Shown here one piece after another: positions 2,500-56,706 of a stretch of 64,000 nt of DNA; position 1 is the stretch's first letter, and each line of letters opens with the position of its first letter. The stretch covers positions 35,402,001 through 35,466,000 of the forward strand of contig OX597818.1 of assembly GCA_951406725.2 (NCBI GenBank), in the 5' to 3' direction. Source of the DNA: Octopus vulgaris (lineage: Eukaryota). A program made the position numbers and the translations under genes. The notes below the pieces were generated by a model. The model had not been told where the DNA came from. It did not search any database and saw nothing but the letters and a program-made list of their open reading frames with translations.

Positions 2500-3010
2500 T
2501 TTCAATTATATTATTATTATGATATATTATTATTATAAGTATACCATGGAGACGGAGATATATATAAGGAATATATATATAAAAGATTATATAAGAGCAG
2601 GAAAAGCATTAGGACCAGAGAAACAACCAGGTTATATATATACAATAAGGATTACAAACAGCGCACATGTGTATGTTCTACCTAGAGGTTCCTGCTGGCA
2701 TATATGCCGCTTTGCACATATATTATTATTAATATAGATACATATAATCAACACAAAGAATATTATTATGGACCACGCACCACCTGCCCAAAACGGATAC
2801 GCAGATTATTACAAACTGCCAACATGATGTATTGAAAGGCATTGCTGAGCATTATTATTATTATTTTTGTGCATTATTATTAGCAGCTATTATTATCAAA
2901 CCCAAGCCCGCAGGTGGGACTACCCACTATATACCAGACCACCACAGCAAACAGACACAGGATGGACACCGCCGGCAACAACGTACACCTCACCTCGATA
3001 CTCCTACTGA
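2500..3010 (+). pseudogene. Disrupted LINE ORF1 remnant (CCCH-type zinc-finger trace and Pro/Thr/Tyr-rich C-terminus)
   Basis: RGSCWH..CRFAH at about 2684-2718; YYQTQARRWDYPLYTRPPQQTDTGWTPPATTYTSPRYSY* overlaps the ORF2 start; interrupted by TATTAT-type junk. Confidence 0.4.
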
Positions 3011-5731
3011 ACATCAGAGGACTGCAAACACTCAGTAACAGGACAAAGATCCCGTTCCTGAGAGACTTTGTTGCATGCAATCAAGCCTTATGCATAGCAC
3101 TTACAGAAACGCACCTGAAACCGGACATAGCAGATGCGGAGTTACACATACCACAGTATGCTGTACTACGGACCGACAGGAAAGAAAGGAGTCATGGAGG
3201 TGTTGCTATGTACATCCGTGAGGACCTCACACCCCAGGTCCTCTTGTCATACTCAAACTCTGTGTGTGACACACTAATTGTACATATTAGGCAACTTGAT
3301 GTAGTTGTGTGTGCTACATATCGCCCTCCAGATGCCCCAAGCCATGTGGGCAAGTTTGAAGACTGCCTTATAAAAATAGAAGAAATTCTAACCACATTAG
3401 AACAACACATAGGTGTGCTTCTTATGGGAGACTTCAATCTGCCCAATGTCAGATGGCCCGAGGGCCTTTCTCTCCCAGGAATGACAAGATGTGAACGAGG
3501 ACAGGCGAGGTCCCTCCTGAACCTCATCAACACCCTGTACATGGAGCAGGTAATACTCCAACCAACCAGGGCAGGTAACACACTGGATCTCTGCTTCACA
3601 AATGACATGGATCTCATCCATAATGTGAAAGTGACACCGACAATACTCTCGGATCACAACATGATAGAGCTGACCATGTATGGGCCAAAAGAGAGCACGG
3701 ACATGCAGCCTACAAGAAACCCTCAAAATCTTTCCAGCTTGAACTACCATAAGGCAAACTGGAAACAAATTGAGAAAGAGATCCTCAAACAAAACTGGCC
3801 TGAATGTCTCTCCTCGCCAGACATCGACGTGAAACTTCAACAATTCATGTCTGTAATGCAAGCCATATGCTACAAATGTGTCCCAGAGAGAAAGGCCACT
3901 GTACACAAGAACAAAATCCCCAGAGAGAGGAAAATTTTAATGAGACGGCGTACGAAATTTTCAAATCGCCTAAACAAACAGATTGAAAGCAGTGAAAAGT
4001 CCCGCCTAAAAATAAAACTGTTGGAAATCGAAAAATGTCTGCAACTCTCCCATGAAAAAAAAGAGCAGACAAAGAAGCCTGGGCTATAGAAAACATAAAA
4101 TCTAACCCCAGAGCTTTCTACAGGTATGTCAAAGAAACAGCTACAGTGCACTGTAGAATAGGGCCACTCCTCGAAAAGGATGGCACACTTACAGGAAAAC
4201 CAATGAGGGTAAGTGAAATACTGAATGAGCAATTCAAGAGTGTTTTCACTCCACCCCTTGGGCATCTCCAAATCACCAATCCAACTGACTTTTTTACCAC
4301 TGCAGATATAAAATCAGAGGCGGCGACGATAGATTACATCGATATAAAGGAAGACGATGTAACCAAGGCTATAGATGAAATGAAAACAGACTCAGCTACT
4401 GGCCCCGATGGATTCCCGGCAATCCTCCTAAAAGCATGTAAGAGAGTCCTAGCAAGACCACTGCAGTTCCTCTTTCAGAGCTTCCTTGCAGCTGGCAAAC
4501 TTCCAGGAAAACTGAAGGAAGGTAAAATATGCCCCATTCATAAAGGAGGTAGCAGAGCGGAAGCCAAGAACTATAGACCTATCTCTCTGACCTCACACAT
4601 CAGCAAGGTCATGGAACGAATAGTCAGAAGGAAGCTGATCACCTTCCTTGAAGAGAATGACTTGCTGCCCGACACCCAACATGGTTTCCGACCAGGGAGA
4701 AGCTGCTTAACTCAGCTCCTACAACACTATGACTGGGTGCTGAAACGGCTGCTCAACCACTCAAATGTGGAAGTCATATATCTCGACTTGGCAAAGGCCT
4801 TTGATAAAGTCGATCATGGAATGATATGTCACAAACTGCGTGATCTCAACATAGTTGGAAAACTGGGAGAATGGCTTCATGACTTTCTGAAGGATAGAAG
4901 TCAGGTGGTAGTAGCCAATGGGGCCACCTCCATTAACACACAAATAGTGAGCGGTGTTCCGCAGGGCACTGTTCTGGGACCACTACTGTTCATAATGGCC
5001 CTCTCAGACATGCCCTCAGCCACGCAGAGAGCCACGATCACAAGTTATGCAGATGATACAAAAGTTTCACAGGCAATACAGAACCCTGAGGACACTAAAC
5101 ACCTGCAATGTGAGCTGGACGAAATATACAAGTGGGCTGAAAAGAATAGCATGCAGTTCAATGCTGGAAAGTTTCAAGCTTTATACTATCAGCATGCAAA
5201 ACTGAATGCAATACCCAATGAATACACTGGACCCGGAGGGATTGCAATCCCAGAGGCACAATCAGTGCGTGACCTGGGTATTCACATGAGTGATGACGCG
5301 ACCTTTCATGTACATGTTGCTAAACTGACAATGAAATGTAGACGGCTGGCTGGATGGATTCTTAGAACCTTTAGAACAAGAGAACAAGAAACCATGATGG
5401 TCCTCTGGAAGACACTTGTCCTAAGCCACTTTGACTATTGCTCTCAGCTATGGTCACCATCCAGTGTCAAGTTGATCACAGAACTTGAGGCGATCCAACG
5501 AAGCTACACAAAGAAGATAGCCTCTATGCAGAATGTAAGCTACTGGGAAAGACTCAAGAGATTAAAATTATATTCCCTGGAGCGTAGGCGGGAAAGATAT
5601 GCCATAATATACATCTGGAAGATCCTGGAGGGAAGTGTCCTGAACTTTGGCATCGAGAGTTACGCAAATGCCAGAACTGGGCGCCACTGCGTGGTGCCTA
5701 GGACTCCAAACCTGCCATCAAGATATAGGAC
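2961..5731 (+). mobile_element. CR1-group non-LTR retrotransposon ORF2 (APE endonuclease plus reverse transcriptase), one frameshift at about 4060-4070, truncated by the assembly gap
   Basis: APE motifs NIRG, ETH, YRPP, GDFN, LDL, SDH (ORF 2914-4089); RT motifs YRPISLTS, QHGF, DLAKAFD, GVPQGTVLGP, YADD (ORF 4146 onward). Confidence 0.95.
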
Positions 5732-5831
5732 NNNNNNNNNNNNNNNNNNNNNNNNNNNNNNNNNNNNNNNNNNNNNNNNNNNNNNNNNNNNNNNNNNNNN
5801 NNNNNNNNNNNNNNNNNNNNNNNNNNNNNNN
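5732..5831. other. Assembly gap (100 N)
   Basis: Run of N. Confidence 1.
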
Positions 5832-5884
5832 TATATATAGATAAGAAAGTTTGTTTGGTAAAGCACGTGGGTGAATATATAAGA

Positions 5885-6317
5885 AAATAGTAAAGTGTGA
5901 AAAAACGACAGAAGGCTTAAATGTTAAAAGATATATATATTTGTGTCAAAATGTCTGGAGAATATTGGAAAAATTTTTTTTTTTTCCTTTCCTTAAAATG
6001 ACATAATTTTTAAATTTTTAAAGAAATTACCGGTTTCGCGTGTAGCTTTTCAAATTTCTTGTGACGTTATGTTTATATTGCATGGATTTATCGTTGTTTT
6101 TATTTCCAGGAGATTTCTAAATAAGGGGAGGTAGTGAGTGATTTTTTCCGGTGTAGGGGAGATAATCGCTTAAAAATTTTTTTCCCATTTCCTTGTTAAT
6201 TTCTCTGTGTCAGTATGTTCGGATGGTTGAGTCTGGGTTTGTACTTTTCAATGAAGAATGTTTCCTTGTTCAGTCTCATTTGTGTTGATGATCCGAAAGC
6301 ACATTGGTAAAATGGGA
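5885..6317 (-). repeat. Inverted copy of the Penelope 3' end/pseudo-LTR
   Basis: Near-perfect reverse complement of 7359-7788. Confidence 0.95.
6021..6060 (-). ncRNA. Minimal type-I hammerhead ribozyme, U3-A8 variant (inverted pLTR copy)
   Basis: Exact reverse complement of 7617-7656. Confidence 0.7.
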
Positions 6318-7782
6318 TACATGGAAATAATCATTTACCAGGAATCTCTATCAATCTTTGGAAACTCCCTCTCTCAATACATAAAAGAGAATTGGAAACG
6401 ATTCCTAGACGATTGTTTCATTCTCTGGAATGAAAACATAGATAAACTCCTAAAATTTAAAAACCTATTGAACAGCATAAACCCAAATATACAGTTCACA
6501 ATGGAATACAACCAAAAGGAGCTCCCGTTCTTGGATATACTAATTAAAAAAATTAACCTTAAAATAGAAACAGACATTTTTTACAAAGCCACAGACGCCA
6601 AACAATACCTTCTTTTAATTCATGCCACCCAAGACACACTAAAACAAACATACCCTTCAACCTTGCAAGAAGGATATGCACAATAGTGTCAGAACAAAAT
6701 ACCAGGAACTTTAGACTGCAAGAACTCAAAAACACCCTAATTGACAGACATTACCCAGCTCAACTCATAGAGGATGGGATCAGACGTGCAACAGAAATCA
6801 ACATAGAAACTTTAAGAAAAGTTCAACACAACAACACACCTTCCCCGAAAATACTACCTTACATATCTACATACAACCCCAGAAACAAAGAAGCCTTCAC
6901 CATCATCACCCAGAATTTACCAATACTTCATAAAAACCCAAAATTAAGGGAAATTCTAAACATACACCAAATCATTAAAAGCTACAAACAGCCTAAATCA
7001 CTTAAAAAGATTCTCGCAAAGGCAAAATTGTCTTCTAAAATTACGGATGCAAAAGTAAAAAAATGTGGTAGATCGAACTGTGCAACATGTCCTAACCTAT
7101 TGGAAGGATCAGAATTCTTCTTTAAAGAAGGACAGAAATTTAAGATCAAATCTAACTTTACTTGTGCCTCTGAAAACATAATTTATGTTATTAAATGCTC
7201 GGGCTGCCACCAAGACTACGTGGGTTCCACGGGACTATCACTCAGGCGCAGATGCACACTGCATCGACAACAGATTGCATTCCCAGAATATAGAATGATA
7301 CCTTTTAGTGAGCACATTGAGAAATGCGCAAAGCAACTACTGCCACAATTTTTAATCTTCCCATTTTACCAATGTGCTTTCGGATCATCAACACAAATGA
7401 GACTGAACAAGGAAACATTCTTCATTGAAAAGTACAAACCCAGACTCAACCATCCGAACATACTGACACAGAGAAATTAACAAGGAAATGGGAAAAAAAT
7501 TTTTTAAGCGATTATCTCCCCTACACCGGAAAAAATCACTCACTACCTCCCCTTATTTAGAAATCTCCTGGAAATAAAAACAACGATAAATCCATGCAAT
7601 ATAAACATAACGTCACAAGAAATTTGAAAAGCTACACGCGAAACCGGTAATTTCTTTAAAAATTTAAAAATTATGTCATTTTAAGGAAAGGAAAAAAAAA
7701 TTTTCCAATATTCTCCAGACATTTTGACACAAATATATATATCTTTTAACATTTAAGCCTTCTGTCGTTTTTTCACACTTTA

Positions 7783-7788
<6 letters not shown>
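6311..7788 (+). mobile_element. 5'-truncated Penelope-like retroelement (RT C-terminus, Cys-rich linker, GIY-YIG endonuclease, pLTR); Neptune-like
   Basis: WKRFLDDCF, LPFLD and IFYKAT; after a frameshift at about 6612, SCHPRHTK..IPFNLARR; CGRSNCATC; IIYVIKCSGCHQDYVGSTG (GIY-YIG); stop at 7480. Confidence 0.92.
7617..7656 (+). ncRNA. Minimal type-I hammerhead ribozyme, U3-A8 variant
   Basis: AAGAAAT-[UUGAAAA]-GC TACAC GC-[GAAA]-CCGG-[UA]-ATTTCTT: 7-bp stem I and palindromic stem III ACCGGT. Confidence 0.7.
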
Positions 7789-7846
<58 letters not shown>

Positions 7847-7851
<5 letters not shown>

Positions 7852-8150
7852 AACTCAATAATACAGAGAAATTCACACTAAAGGAAAAAATTTTAAGCGA
7901 TTATCTCCCTTACACCGGAAAATCACTCACTACTTTCCTTTATTTAGAACTCGTAGCAAAAATACTATATATAACATTAAGTCACAAGAAATAAGAGCTA
8001 ACTGCGAAACCGGTATTTCTTTAAAAATTATAAAATTATGTCATTTTAAGGAGGAAAAAATTTTTTCCAATATTCTCCAGACATTTTGACGCATATATAT
8101 ATATATTTTTTAACATTTAAGCCTTCTGTCGACACTCTATATATACTATT
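7847..8150 (+). repeat. Third, degenerate direct copy of the Penelope pLTR
   Basis: Matches 7452-7788 with many small indels. Confidence 0.85.
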
Positions 8151-8190
<40 letters not shown>

Positions 8191-31018: not shown

Positions 31019-31429
31019 ATTTCTTTATTGTTCACAAGGGGCTAAACAGAGGGGACAAACAAGGACAGTCAAAGGTATTAAGTCGATTACATCGACCCTA
31101 GTACGTAACTGGTACATATTTAATCGACCCCGAAAGGATGAAAGGCAGAGTCGACCTTGGCGGAATTTGAACTCAGAACGTAGCGGCAGACGAAATACCT
31201 ATTTCTTTACTTCCCACAAGGGGCTAAACACAGAGAGGACAAACAAGGACAGGCAAACGGATTAAGTCGATTACATCGACCCCAGTGCGTAACTGGTACT
31301 TAATTTATCGACCCCAAAAGGATGAAAGGCAAAGTCGACCTCGGCGGAATTTGAACTCAGAACGTAACGGCAGACGAAATACTGCTATGCATTTCGCCCG
31401 GTGTGCTAACGATTCTGCCAGCTCGCCGC
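31019..31429 (-). mobile_element. tRNA-derived SINE with tandemly duplicated body
   Basis: rc of GGCGAGCTGGCAGAATCGTTAGCAC...GAGTTCAAATTCCGCCGAGGTCGAC; two cores; AACGATTCT flanking repeat. Confidence 0.88.
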
Positions 31430-32223
31430 TCAAACGATTCTGGAAAACGGCTACCTCTGAAGACTGATAACATTGTCGCCTCAAAGTTTGCAAGACTCAA
31501 ACTGAGAAACTAAAGGTTAAGAGGAAATGACTAAATATAACAAGATATTTTGTCTGTTATCCTACCACTTCCGTTAATTAAATGCTTTCAAAGCAGAATA
31601 AGAATTAAAATAGTATGATGATAATCCTAAGTACCAATAACAATCAAAACAGGCAAGTAAAAACATTCTACTGGCAAGAAATAGCAACGACGTTTCCCAC
31701 GAATAATAAGAATGCACTGCCTTTAATAAAGAAAGGATGCACTAAATAATGAAATCTTTGACACACCTACAACAGAGAGGATAGCGACGATAGAATGCCG
31801 TTAATCAGCTCTCTAAGGCCTGAACTAGAGCTAAACAACAACATCAACCACTCTACGTAATCTGGTATAGAAATTAAGCCAAACACCTGTACGTCACCAT
31901 CACAAACAGAACTATAAAAGAATGTATTTCCTTTGATCATACATACCAGTTCGAACAAGTATCTTTCGGAACATTAATTCCGATTAGAACACAAACTCTT
32001 TTAAATTCTGTTGGTGGTTTTCCTGATTGGGTTGAAGTCGTGCTGTGACACGACTTTAAAGGCGTTTGGGCTATTAAATGAACCTCAGTACATGTGCACG
32101 TGAATTGGGTTACCGTCTTATGAAGCAGAAAAGTAAAGCTCGATTTGGGAGAAATTTTAACTGAGAGCATAGATTATTATAAGGGCTATATATATATATA
32201 TATATATTATTTACAGTTAACAT

Positions 32224-32350
32224 ATATTTGTCCTCATCTTGTTTGTTGTTAACACGACGTTTCGGCTGATATACCCTCCAGCTTTCATCAGGTGTCTTGG
32301 GGAAATTTCGAACCTGAGTTCTCATTCCTAAGGTATTTTTTGATGTTAAC

Positions 32351-32394
<44 letters not shown>

Positions 32395-32530
32395 TAGCAA
32401 CAACAACAACAACATCGTAAAATACTTTAGGAATGAGAACCCAGATTCGAAATTTCCCCCAAGACACCTTATGAAGGGTATATCAGCCGAAACGTTGTGT
32501 TAACAACAAGCAAGATGAGGACAAATATCC
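32224..32530. mobile_element. Inverted pair of a hammerhead-bearing short repeat around (AAT)n/(AAC)n
   Basis: 32224-32347 is the approximate reverse complement of 32411-32529. Confidence 0.85.
32251..32296 (-). ncRNA. Minimal type-I hammerhead ribozyme (canonical core, GUC site)
   Basis: Minus strand GACAC-CTGATGA-AAGCTG GAGGGTATAT CAGCC-GAAA-CG-TC-GTGTT. Confidence 0.7.
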
Positions 32531-32570
32531 GACGAATGTAAATAATGTACATAATTCCTCATCTCTTAAA

Positions 32571-32629
<59 letters not shown>

Positions 32630-51538: not shown

Positions 51539-52266
51539 GCTCCTCCATAATATTATTAACAACTCCTTATAACGAAATGCTAATCGCAAAGCGAGAATAC
51601 GACATCCATACAATTTTCACAAGACTATTAACAGCATAACTGAAACTGTTCCCAAAAGAATAACACACTCAGGTTACATATCCTTGGAGAAATACAAGGC
51701 AAATAGATCTCAGTGGGATTTGAACAGAAAATAAAAGCAAATTAATATAACTAAATATAAGCTACTTAAATAAAAAGAAATTGCTCTTCTTTGTAGTAGC
51801 AGCATTGTAATTGTTAGATGTTGATGGTGTTAACAAGAGTAACAATAAGCAACTTATACTGCCATTGAGGTAACCTTGAAATACAGTATGTAAACATATC
51901 TATTTGTGTAAAAACATAAAAAAAAACTAACATTTGAAAGTATATGTGTTGACTACGTTTGTGAGTGTTAGCGTGTGTGCATGTTTTATGCTTTTGTTTG
52001 AGCTTGTGTGCACGTTTTATAGAAATCTTGTTTCAACGCGTGTTCGTATGTGTTTGTGTATATACTGCTGATTATTTTTCTTTAGACATTTTTTGAATTG
52101 AATGAGTTTTTACTTCGTGTTTTTTTTAATTTTTTTTTTTTTAGTTAACACCAAAATAAGGAATAAATAGATAATCCACAAATATATGTGAACGATTTTA
52201 GTTTTAGAAATATTGCATTTCTAAATTTCTCAGAGAGACTTATACAGTAGCAGCACGATAAAGAGC

Positions 52267-52634
52267 TGGTTTGTTGCCAACTTAATGTGGCATTCCCAGG
52301 AAAGGGAAGAATGCTACTGCTAATTAGCCCCAGGAAACACCGTTTCCTGTTGGCTATGTGACACAAGCGTAATGTGTCCTTATGTTTTCAAAGCTGAATA
52401 AGCATCGACAGCTAGTAAGCCAAGCTACTCAAGACTGGTGAAGAGCAAAGACTCTGAAACTAGTCTCTGATTGCTGGCTTTGCTGGGTGGAGGTGCTTAT
52501 CTCCCCTGTTTGAAAACACAATAACACAGCACGCTTGTGTCACATAGCCAACTAGAAGCGGTGTTTCCTGGGGTTAAATAGCAGTAGCATTCTTCCCTTT
52601 TCTGGGACAGCCGCATTAAGTTGGCAACAAACCA
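52267..52634 (+). mobile_element. Rod-like foldback element with an apical hammerhead motif (copy 1, full)
   Basis: 52267-52370 is the approximate reverse complement of 52531-52634, with pairing continuing inward; hammerhead at 52432-52468. Confidence 0.85.
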
Positions 52635-52910
52635 TCAGTTTTAGTTTTATAAAAATCAAGTGGTGTAAACCAATAGAAATTGAAAATAGTGATATCAAAA
52701 TCTAGGGCGTACTGTTATTTCGCGAACTTAAATAGCTATATACGCACTATCACAATACTTCTATCCCAATACCCTGTGAGTAAAGGCATACCAAAAAAAG
52801 ACGTTCTGCTTATACTAAAATTTCTTCTATTCATTCAGATGTAGTGTCTGCCTTGTAACTACATCACCCACTGCGCCCTTCAATTTTTAAAAATGGTATA
52901 GTGTGAGTTG

Positions 52911-53090
52911 TGTCCTTATGTTTTCAAAGGTGAATAAGCGTTGACAACAAGCAAACCAAGCTACTCCAGACTGATGAAGATCAATGACTCTGAAACTAAT
53001 CTCTAAATGTTGGCTTTGATGGGTGGAAGTGTTTATCTCCCTTGTTGGAAAACATAATGACACAGCACGCTTGTGTCACATAGCCAATTA
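52911..53090 (+). mobile_element. Copy 2 (core only) with a canonical CTGATGA core, flanked by a 20-bp direct repeat
   Basis: AAATGGTATAGTGTGAGTTG at 52891-52910 and 53101-53120; hammerhead at 52968-53004. Confidence 0.8.
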
Positions 53091-54429
53091 GTATTTTTTT
53101 AAATGGTATAGTGTGAGTTGATGAAGATTTTGGTGCTATTTCTGGATGGTAGGCAGGTGTGTTTTCGTTGACACGAAGTGCTATAAGTGAGGTGTTCGGG
53201 TAGATACAGCAGTCGAGTACTAAGCTCCAAGGTTTCGAACTCAAAATCACTACAGGTGTTCCATTGTCTATTGATTAGTGAACTTAGTTATAAACACTTT
53301 AATATAACAACTGAGAATGTTCTCTGCAATACATTTCCACTAGGAACCCTTCGGGCTGTGATGTCATTCAAAATAAAAATTTAAACATTTCACCAAATCT
53401 TCTTTCGGTTTATCAGAGAGAAAAATAAGCTGTTAAAGGCGTAACATCTAAATTAATATCCAAAGAAGATTATTACGCTTTCAAAGTGAACACATGAACA
53501 TTTTAATTGAGTTATTTAGCCACTTGTGTTCCACTGGCATTCTCCTATCTTCAAATAACAAGTCTATGTATATTGAATTATTTGCATGTGAGTATACATG
53601 TTTGTTACAGTGCATTCATACTCAAGATTTGTGTGTGTGATTCTATGTCTTCGTTTGTGCGTATGTCTACAAATGTAGTGTATCCGTTTCGTTATTATAT
53701 GATAGAGTACAGATATGCCTAATATTAGAATAATTGCTTTTATTTTCAACTGAAATATAGTGATAGCGCTTTCACATACTCACAAAATACACTTACTTTC
53801 ATGTAAGAATAAGACGAAAGAATAAGACATACAAACACGGACGTTCATAGGCAGACATATGTTAACATAGACACGAACATGTGTACACAAAAGCAAAGCC
53901 ACACACGATATTTACAAATGCATTCAAACACACGTGCAAACACCGACGCACACATTATAATGCTGTTAGTTGGTTCTTTTCCAAGGAAGCCAACTATTTG
54001 TTGCCTTCAATAACTCAGCGTGATCTAATTAGTGTAGTTACCAACTACTTAAAACAGAGAGGCAAAATTCCGTTTTACATCAATGTACATGACATGGCCT
54101 CAATATAGCTAGTTATGTTTCTAGAGGGAATTAGTTTTCCCCTACGCATAGAATATTCTCTATAAATTGGCTCCTTTGTTTCTATTATATAGAAACTATC
54201 ATTTTAGTAATGCAAAAATATAGGTTGAAAATATAAAGGATGAACAAACTGCGACTCCATCTTGTTGTGGTTGTACTACTCCAGGGAATTTCTGACTGAG
54301 TAGACTTATGATATAAAAAGGTTCCAGCCGTGACCATTTCGTTATTTTACCTCCATTTCTGTGTACACCGGACTAAATTATCTGCATTTTTTTCTTTAAA
54401 CGGCAACGAATGAGTCGCGGAAAATATAA

Positions 54430-54681
54430 CTATGTGACACAAGCGTGCCGTGTTCTTATATTTTCGAACAGGGGAGATAAACACCTCCACCCAGCAAAGC
54501 CAGCTTCCAGAGACTAGTTTCAGAGTCTTTGCTCTTCGCCAGTCTTGAGTAGCTGTCGATGCTTATGCACCTTTGAAAACATAAGGACACAGTACGCTTG
54601 TGTCACATAGCCAACTAGAAACGGTGTTTTCTGGGGCTAAATAGCAGTAACATTCTTCCCTTTCCTGTGACTGCCACATTA
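54430..54681 (-). mobile_element. Copy 3 of the rod/hammerhead element, inverted
   Basis: rc AGA-CTGGCGA-AGAG CAAAGA CTCT-GAAA-CTAG-TC-TCT at 54509-54545, plus shared arms. Confidence 0.85.
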
Positions 54682-56706
54682 GAAAAAAATGTTGAGCTCC
54701 GTTTGTCACTGGATTTTGTTTCGTTTTCCTTATGGCCTTTATGCCACAAGAAAAGGAATGTGTATCACTGTATCATCGGCTCTTTAAATTTTTGCGTGTT
54801 TTTTTTTTTATTAATTACTGACATCAATGCTAACAAAAGTTAATGGAGACTGATGCAAATAAAGATGTGCAAATATGAAACCACACAATATTTTCTAAGA
54901 TTTGGAAATTCCTGTCATAGCTGCATAAAGGTCGAAAAATATAAAACTTGTTCGATCATAAACGGCTTCTAAAGATTTGTTGCTGGAAAATACCCGAAGC
55001 ACATGCATTTCAGTGTGAAGTAGCATTAATAGAAGGAAAACCCTAAGTTGCTTTCTCGAAGATAAAACTCCGCAAGGAAGCCACAGTGCAGAGTATACTG
55101 ACACCGACTAGGACGCGAGAAGAGCAACGCATACTCAGTTTCTGCAGGCGACCTAACACACAGCAAGAACACAAGCACTTCAAACATCAGCCCTAACTTC
55201 TTGAAACTTAACAGGCAGCAAATTCATTTAGAATTTTATCAAAGTCTCGTGAGTAAGAAAGGTTATATCACGCAAATAATTAGCGAAACGTTAATTATTT
55301 GACATTAGTGTACAATTTAATAAATGTTTCAATTATCTAAACTATGTAGAAATTATCAAGAGAGATTTAATATTCCCCAAATACGAAACACGCTTTTGAA
55401 TGGAAAATGAAATGTTATTTCTTGCCAATATATATTTGAAGCAAGAAGAATGGAAATTTTGATATGCTAAATTGGTTAGTATAACCTAATATTGTTAGCA
55501 GAGAATTGTTAAAAACTGGTGAATAATAATGTTTCAGGAAATACTATGAATAAGTTGTATTCAAATTGCTTGCCTAGACTTTTGTCTACATATAAGAAGC
55601 AATCGGTATGCAAAATGATAAATACATTACTGTGGATAAAAGAATTATATAACAGTAGATTATACAAAACAGACGACGTCCCTTTAGAACATGAGTGACG
55701 CTCCAGTTAAAATTCAAATTAGCGATTTATTTAGACTGGCGATATCTAGGATCAGTACGATTTACAAAATGGCCGAACTTCTAAGTTTAATTAAAGAGTA
55801 GGGGATTGGTAAAATTGTCAGAGCGTTGGGTACAATGCCTTGCAGGATTAATTATGATACTTTTCGTCCAGAACTCGTATTGCGCACGTTGACGTTGTTT
55901 TCATCCGTCCTGTATAGTTAAATAAAATACAGGACAAGCTCGCTTCAACTCAAATTTGAGGCTTTGTGCCCATGGTTACAATCATTTAGAAGAGAGTCGC
56001 TAAACAACAACTAGCATATGTTAGCAAATTTAAATTTCTACTGTAGAGGCAGTCTTACAAAGAAAAATCTCACTGCAGCTCATGAGAAAGACTTACATCC
56101 AAAGTAATGCTTGAACAAGTTCATCAGAAGAAGTGGAGTTTCAGATATTGCAAGCTCTGCCTGATTTGTGGGGTGGATAAGGTTGACATTCATTTCGAGT
56201 ATTTAGATGAAATTCGACTTCTGAATTTCTGTACAACATACATATCAGCACCAGATAGATTATAGCTGTTTCCGCTATAAATTATAGCTGTTTCTGCTTC
56301 ATTAATAAAATGATTTTTTTCAAATATAATCAAATCCGTTTAAATATGTAATGATGGCTTCATCAGAACGTCATATCTGCTTCAATCTTTCACGAAAAAT
56401 ATCAAGTGAAAATATTTGTAACTGCTAAAGCTTTTCGAAAACGTTTTTTAAGACCGAGCTTACTCATAAATTACCTAAATTTCTAAATTTAAGTCTATGA
56501 ATATTCAGTTCTACAACCGATTTTATTGCACAGTACACACATTCATATATACATAATTATATATATTTATATATATACACACATATACACCTATAATTTA
56601 TGTATACACACATAAACACACGTACGTATACACACATGCATATTCACATATACAAGTTTACTTATTCATCTATATATATACATATACATACACATATATA
56701 TATACA

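Follow-up and report, generated by a model that had tools for sequence, protein, structure and literature searches.

The window, the 64,000-nt stretch of Octopus vulgaris DNA analysed here, very probably carries a decayed head-to-head insertion, together with two local duplicates of it, of a 356-nt hammerhead repeat of the non-LTR retrozyme type, which was likely copied in trans by a Penelope-like protein with reverse transcriptase (RT) and GIY-YIG domains. The original prediction of a hammerhead retroelement that is non-autonomous and was probably moved by a Penelope-like RT is in this part supported by the two kinds of outer ends (A and B), the inverted truncated copies and the target-site duplications (TSDs) described below. 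As far as the family was sampled, it is non-autonomous. The features of the three window copies are collected in Table 1.

Table 1. Features of the three window copies; monomer positions refer to the 356-nt unit.
Position	Strand	Feature	Basis
52196..52206	+	left 11-nt direct repeat, candidate TSD, 3-nt overlap with element end	sequence, duplication scan
52204..52392	-	copy 1 inverted arm, monomer 228-416, outer end at site B	
52381..52641	+	copy 1 main arm, monomer 99-360, outer end at site A; without the PSE-like motif of monomer 69	
52381..52392	.	12-nt arm overlap, base of the monomer's own hairpin; recurrent junction	
52410..52422	+	predicted +1 region and LINE target (monomer ~128-140), empty in copy 1	
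52430..52470	+	copy 1 type I hammerhead, A6G, predicted cut after 52465	
52639..52649	+	right 11-nt direct repeat	
52908..53087	+	copy 2, central part only: inverted 228-248 and 99-270	
52966..53006	+	copy 2 hammerhead: core intact, stems damaged, fold z +1.2	
54430..54583	-	copy 3 main arm, monomer 99-266, 13-nt deletion across the LINE target site	
54507..54547	-	copy 3 hammerhead, A6G	
54572..54681	+	copy 3 inverted arm, monomer 228-337	

The arms of copy 1, 52260-52392 and 52509-52641, are 133 nt long and 87% complementary. The terminal pairing described earlier is thus real, but its extent of about 104 bp was too short: the left arm continues for some 60 nt beyond the start given at the time, to 52204, and this 56-nt tail (52204-52259) is unpaired, with no partner on the right side. 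Folding of 52267-52634 as RNA yielded the proposed single rod (-256 kcal/mol, z -29.6), and none of 100 shuffled sequences folded as well. The hammerhead words and the palindromic ACTAGT were found as stated in the three local copies, as were A6G in copies 1 and 3, the damaged stems of copy 2 and the absence of coding capacity, no ORF being found in the element. In the frame of the repeat unit, copy 1 reads as an inverted segment followed directly by a forward one (228-416, then 99-360). One base is common to all three window copies and occurs in none of 73 other copies. Copies 1 and 3 additionally share two more private variants plus A6G, and the CAAAGA form of loop II is private to these two (0/73 others). 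Because these private variants are shared, the window copies are read as local duplicates of one insertion; judged from sequence, they derive from a single event and are not independent. All three look like defective fossils. Copy 2 is flanked by 28-nt direct repeats (52883-52910 and 53093-53120) that exceed the duplication usual for the family and perhaps reflect a templated repair insertion.

The repeat unit is a 356-nt non-coding monomer, whose period was taken from a natural longer-than-unit copy (L033:1501-1920) that also provides the coordinate frame for all monomer positions. It contains no ORF of at least 130 aa, and its own hairpin (~99-240) bears the ribozyme at the tip. Partial tandems are present among the copies, and in many of them the tail runs directly into the next monomer; pairs of ribozymes in tandem are nevertheless rare here, as exact-pattern dimers were absent and same-strand ribozyme pairs occur only at L033 and L155. 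First-look searches of the genome returned 2674 and 3041 candidates, which are not copy numbers, while a 33-letter ribozyme pattern gave 189 exact matches genome-wide against none for the reversed control. The family appears old, since its copies average 86% pairwise identity. Contigs of three sequencing runs, guessed to be RNA, cover the monomer and are silent on starts, strand and circles.

A sister family, 64-69% identical to the main one, has a period of 352 and copies about 90% identical to one another, among them dimers and trimers (L179:79-1566; L223-L252, with 3 overlapping loci left out of the set). A third hammerhead family, and perhaps a fourth, lies 3' of a LINE end (L208, L213, L214, L205) and is known only as a LINE target. 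Elsewhere in the window (~32190-32590), an unrelated second head-to-head hammerhead element shows an intact minimal-type core near 32296 on the minus strand, a damaged core on the plus strand, an (AAT)n centre, and TA and ATCT flanks. A suspected GIY-YIG end upstream of L018 turned out to be another transposon-like sequence.

The ribozyme of the monomer is a canonical metazoan type I hammerhead, with a stem II of 3-4 bp closed by a 6-nt loop and a stem III of 1-2 bp with a palindromic loop. The accessible text of PMC4209133 distinguishes this type, which is expected to act as a dimer, from the min-HHR of Penelope-like elements (PLEs), in which helix III and loop 3 are missing and helix II is long. 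With its 3-4-bp stem II and palindromic stem III, the monomer ribozyme falls outside the min-HHR definition, and the earlier assignment to the minimal type is replaced on these stem lengths. The consensus proposed at first gave the core correctly; its CAAAGA loop is atypical, the commonest loop II being CAATGA. An A at position 6 is normal for the family (52 of 57 copies, counted after 11 rows had been dropped), and the core is intact with correct spacing in 39 of these 57. The 12 core columns are 96.5% conserved, compared with 90.8% at the other columns. In the sister family all 12 core letters are kept, the stem III palindrome differs and the cleavage triplet ends in A; relative to the main family, four pairs of stem I, one of stem II and one of stem III change on both sides. 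In the alignments the hammerhead covaries across families around an unchanged core, and cleavage is predicted. In family 1 the 5' ends are not piled at the predicted cut, where 5 of 153 fall; in family 2 it is 3 of 33, a sample too small for a reading. A search of Rfam gave no hammerhead match at E <= 10 within 52200-54750, and its matches over the whole window were miRNA models on microsatellites.

We mapped the outer ends of the family's copies at 71 distinct loci, obtained with queries biased towards inverted arms and B ends. Of 118 ends, 101 fall at two fixed sites, A (~341-370; 43 ends) or B (~401-420; 58 ends). The sites, centred on ~360 and ~416, are about 58 nt apart, and the ends often run into TA or other microsatellites. 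Head-to-head structures were found at 46 of the 71 loci, with scattered inner junctions. The two-ended loci, 46 in number, comprise 28 with one A and one B end, 2 B+B, 1 A+A and 15 with a truncated end; where both ends are intact, 28 of 31 loci are thus A+B. Direct repeats of at least 11 nt, a length that includes a few element bases, flank 12 of 25 non-microsatellite loci as against 35 of 896 mismatched pairs (21 low-complexity loci were left out of this count, and 19 loci, including L019, which contains window copy 3, were dropped from both the end and the duplication counts as duplicates or segmental duplicates). Flanking duplications measure ~9-13 nt across the family, and one of 11 nt surrounds copy 1. 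The tail of ~58 nt compares with 30-40 nt in the literature.

An inverted truncated copy and a one-sided tail are described as typical of PLE insertions in the accessible part of Craig et al. 2021 (PMC8557442). The architecture, at first thought to match nothing recognised, is therefore a described PLE insertion structure. According to the accessible sections of Frangieh et al. 2024 (PMC11167929), cutting and extension of both strands can be seen in vitro with a PLE protein, whose RT begins at two internal positions delimiting the tail. The long inverted arms, the flanking duplication and the lack of an ORF would also suit a MITE or foldback DNA element with a ribozyme-like sequence arising by chance. 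We consider this scarcely credible: the two ends are different sites (A and B) and the arms vary in length, so the arms are not MITE-like as had been suggested; copies with a single, 5'-truncated arm are common; and covariation of the hammerhead extends across families.

The rod-type junction of copy 1 recurs in ~7 of the 46 head-to-head loci and is seen in two subfamilies. Together with the fold of z -29.6, this recurrence could mean that the rod itself is a replicating RNA, a ~370-nt hairpin with one ribozyme that is recopied as a unit. Such a scenario is very improbable. Among 17 loci picked by an exact ribozyme match alone, a head-to-head arrangement is seen in 9 and the rod junction in none. 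Rods of either subfamily have both arms drawn from that subfamily, a sign of repeated de novo formation. The rod also lacks the PSE-like motif, and the window copies are local duplicates. Moreover, the 228/99 junction falls on a natural 12-nt overlap at the base of the monomer hairpin, so that two helices merge and the DNA reads as a rod. A quantitative comparison of the arms is weak: similarity is only marginally higher within a locus (0.893) than between loci (0.872), and the partner arm is the nearest neighbour in 6 of 40 cases, the filter having dropped the second subfamily. The rod is a by-product of integration, its left arm an inverted 5'-truncated second copy, and the viroid-like mobile unit of the original prediction is abandoned.

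As a control we examined a coding PLE of the same genome. Two sites separated by 42 nt account for its ends (13 and 17 of 30), and all four of its head-to-head pairs have one of each end. A fragment of this PLE, which is very young and has RT, C-x-x-C linker and GIY-YIG, lies in the window at 5850-7790, with an inverted pLTR and tail at its left and a TA end at its right; a second pLTR-like piece stands beside it (7860-8160). The 150 scored copies of this young PLE, from 18,386 candidates, are ~99% identical, and in long copies a ~450-aa upstream ORF overlaps an RT-EN frame of 811-869 aa. It was rejected as the partner of the hammerhead family: only short chance words are shared, and its ends resemble those of the monomer no more than shuffled sequences do (327 and 188 of 500). 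The hammerhead core was not found in four young-PLE loci. More generally, no pLTR-length match appeared in 30 GIY-YIG loci, where the one match was a chance one (E 0.03), in 4 coding-PLE loci or in 20 ribozyme loci, and no attached ORF with RT and GIY-YIG was seen in the loci examined, which are not a full census.

All the insertion marks of the family are PLE marks, and each partner search scored only the best candidates. The monomer might thus be the solo pLTR of a PLE, yet to be found, that is autonomous and bears a hammerhead; opposite-strand hammerhead pairs 100-700 bp apart are indeed described for truncated PLEs in the accessible text of PMC4209133. We regard this as unlikely, since the tail continues into the next monomer in many copies, LINE insertions, and no PLE ORF, lie between the members of a same-strand ribozyme pair 2.8 kb apart, and the ribozyme is canonical rather than min-HHR. 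A retrozyme-type repeat served in trans remains the reading that we prefer.

Upstream of snRNA genes of this genome, an ATYAG-type motif was found at -57 to -61 in 28 of 30 U2 loci and at -56 to -59 in 27 of 30 U1 loci. Many of these loci are array paralogues, and the matrix was built from 17 distinct sites. Its best score lies at monomer 69 in three of three monomers (6.8, 14.2 and 12.5), and no plus-strand site of the window reaches a score of 12. In the sister family, the matrix ranks the motif first in one monomer and third in another. On the strength of this match, the predicted transcription start is near monomer 128. In addition, a hairpin adjoining site B forms in the fold of the PSE-like stretch, for which reason its conservation may instead reflect RT binding.

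A LINE occurs in several copies at monomer ~128-140, with this stretch duplicated. Counted from the motif, the target begins at 58-59 nt in 11 of 12 monomers of family 1 and at 59-60 nt in 27 of 27 of family 2. Of 41 matches to the LINE 3' end, 30 were analysed, a set that includes the query locus twice and that also supplied two of the reference slices. They lead into the main family (13), the sister family (4), the third family (3) or a duplicated target followed by a LINE copy (8), and 2 are unassigned. A hammerhead unit thus follows the LINE 3' end at 20 of 30 loci, while U1 or U2 follows at none of the 30. The resulting target preference of 28/30 compares with a threshold of more than 20% of flanks in Kojima's rule. 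Contigs of runs that bear the labels of three organisms (B, C and D) bridge a LINE/target junction. Both the U1/U2-like motif and the LINE are absent from all three window copies.

The architecture of the targeting LINE was pieced together from different decayed copies. Its ORF1 matches zf-CCHC (E 0.0017); RVT_1 was matched at E 3.5e-12, zf-RVT at E 1.4e-10 in a U2-linked relative, and EN only at E 0.046. The best PDB match of the RT is L1 ORF2p. From its motifs and architecture we take the LINE to be Tx1-like. An Atlas search with ORF2 gave a best score of 0.82, which serves as a lead only. At the two U2 loci without the motif, a related LINE ORF2 (58% over 55 aa) ends at +1; upstream of U2 at L282 and L289 it is a long open C-terminus with zf-RVT, ending at U2 +1 in place of the motif.

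Many LINE copies at the target (L172, L180, L253, L265-L269) consist of ORF1 alone followed by the 3' end; these half-L1-like deletion forms frequently stand in tandem and are then separated by the duplicated target. An abundant SINE, present in the window at 31215, 45489, 49416 and 63718, shares a ~45-nt 3' tail with the targeting LINE and sits elsewhere: none of its four window copies is at such a site, and one has a ~16-nt duplication. Another LINE, distinct from these, has EN and RT and two long open frames; it lies at window 2884-5837 and is interrupted by an assembly gap.

These observations can be arranged into a working model. Driven by the snRNA-type motif, transcription of a source copy would begin near monomer 128. 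Hammerheads pairing through their palindromic stem III would then cut read-through multimers or a circle, giving a template in which the motif is restored. The PLE protein would nick both strands of AT-rich DNA ~10-12 nt apart, one strand priming at A and the other at B, and the two cDNAs would join wherever they are able to pair; joining at the hairpin base, over the 12-nt overlap, would produce a perfect rod. The L1/Tx1-like LINE would parasitise the family at the predicted +1. A stronger version of this model holds that the retrozymes described here are RNA circles driven by an snRNA promoter, that a Penelope dimer copies them from the two strands of a single cut, starting at A on one and at B on the other, while the RNA hairpin steers the join, and that a Tx1-like LINE lineage locates them, as well as U2 genes, by their position behind the promoter element, being tethered to the snRNA transcription complex rather than guided by target sequence, and takes over the promoter. 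We put this version forward tentatively, as a possibility that is more doubtful than not.

The family shares many traits with the metazoan non-LTR retrozymes (Cervera and de la Pena 2020, PMC7229834; Li, Clavereau and Pollet 2026, 10.64898/2026.07.22.740005, each in its accessible part), which are 150-450-nt non-coding units with a type I hammerhead. Its 356-nt unit without ORF is close to those of mussel (350-390 bp) and axolotl (330/350 bp), and it has in common with them a palindromic stem III, TSDs of more than 4 bp and a PLE as proposed partner. Stem II has a U-U at its base, as it does in HHR_Amex2, and no other form is as frequent among the 100 matches listed here. The present family is mostly dispersed as head-to-head partial monomers, whereas retrozymes are described in arrays; A/B ends, inverted copies and LINE targeting do not appear in the accessible parts of the published accounts. 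With PLEs, as presented in the accessible text of PMC8557442 and PMC11167929, it shares the inverted 5'-truncated copy, partial tandems, one-sided tail, two RT start sites and AT-rich or microsatellite targets. It differs from them in having no ORF, a canonical hammerhead and a ~58-nt tail; non-autonomous, pLTR-forming PLE families (MRC1) do exist. The copying enzyme of animal retrozymes has so far been argued from co-occurrence and phylogeny. The insertions analysed here show the PLE footprint directly, and A+B pairing predicts the unexplained inverted-plus-tail structure of PLEs.

An internal snRNA-type promoter was shown in newt satellite 2, also a hammerhead repeat (Coats et al. 1994, as cited in the accessible text of PMC2220036), whereas here there is only a motif match, in an invertebrate-type genome. 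In our literature search, which covered sources other than Dfam, Repbase and subscription papers, no paper on LINE targeting of retrozymes or snRNA start sites was found. To the extent of the texts accessible, what was known already comprises retrozymes, their proposed PLE link, the snRNA-type promoter of newt satellite 2, and the targeting by Tx1 elements of other mobile elements or of U2 nt 38/39. If true, a LINE that lands at a constant spacing from an snRNA-type promoter motif, in targets unlike one another in sequence, would represent a way of targeting absent from the literature searched. Like Tx1L, Tx1-Mar, Keno and Utopia, as described in the accessible parts of PMC4494074 and PMC4640811, the targeting LINE combines a CCHC ORF1, an APE-like EN, RT and zf-RVT, and like Tx1 LINEs it occupies a fixed site inside another mobile element, with tandem copies separated by a TSD. 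Its U2-linked relative ends at +1, while Keno and Utopia insert at U2 nt 38/39. Unlike the Tx1 LINEs of these accounts, the LINE described here enters hammerhead targets that differ in sequence and keeps a constant spacing from a PSE-like motif.
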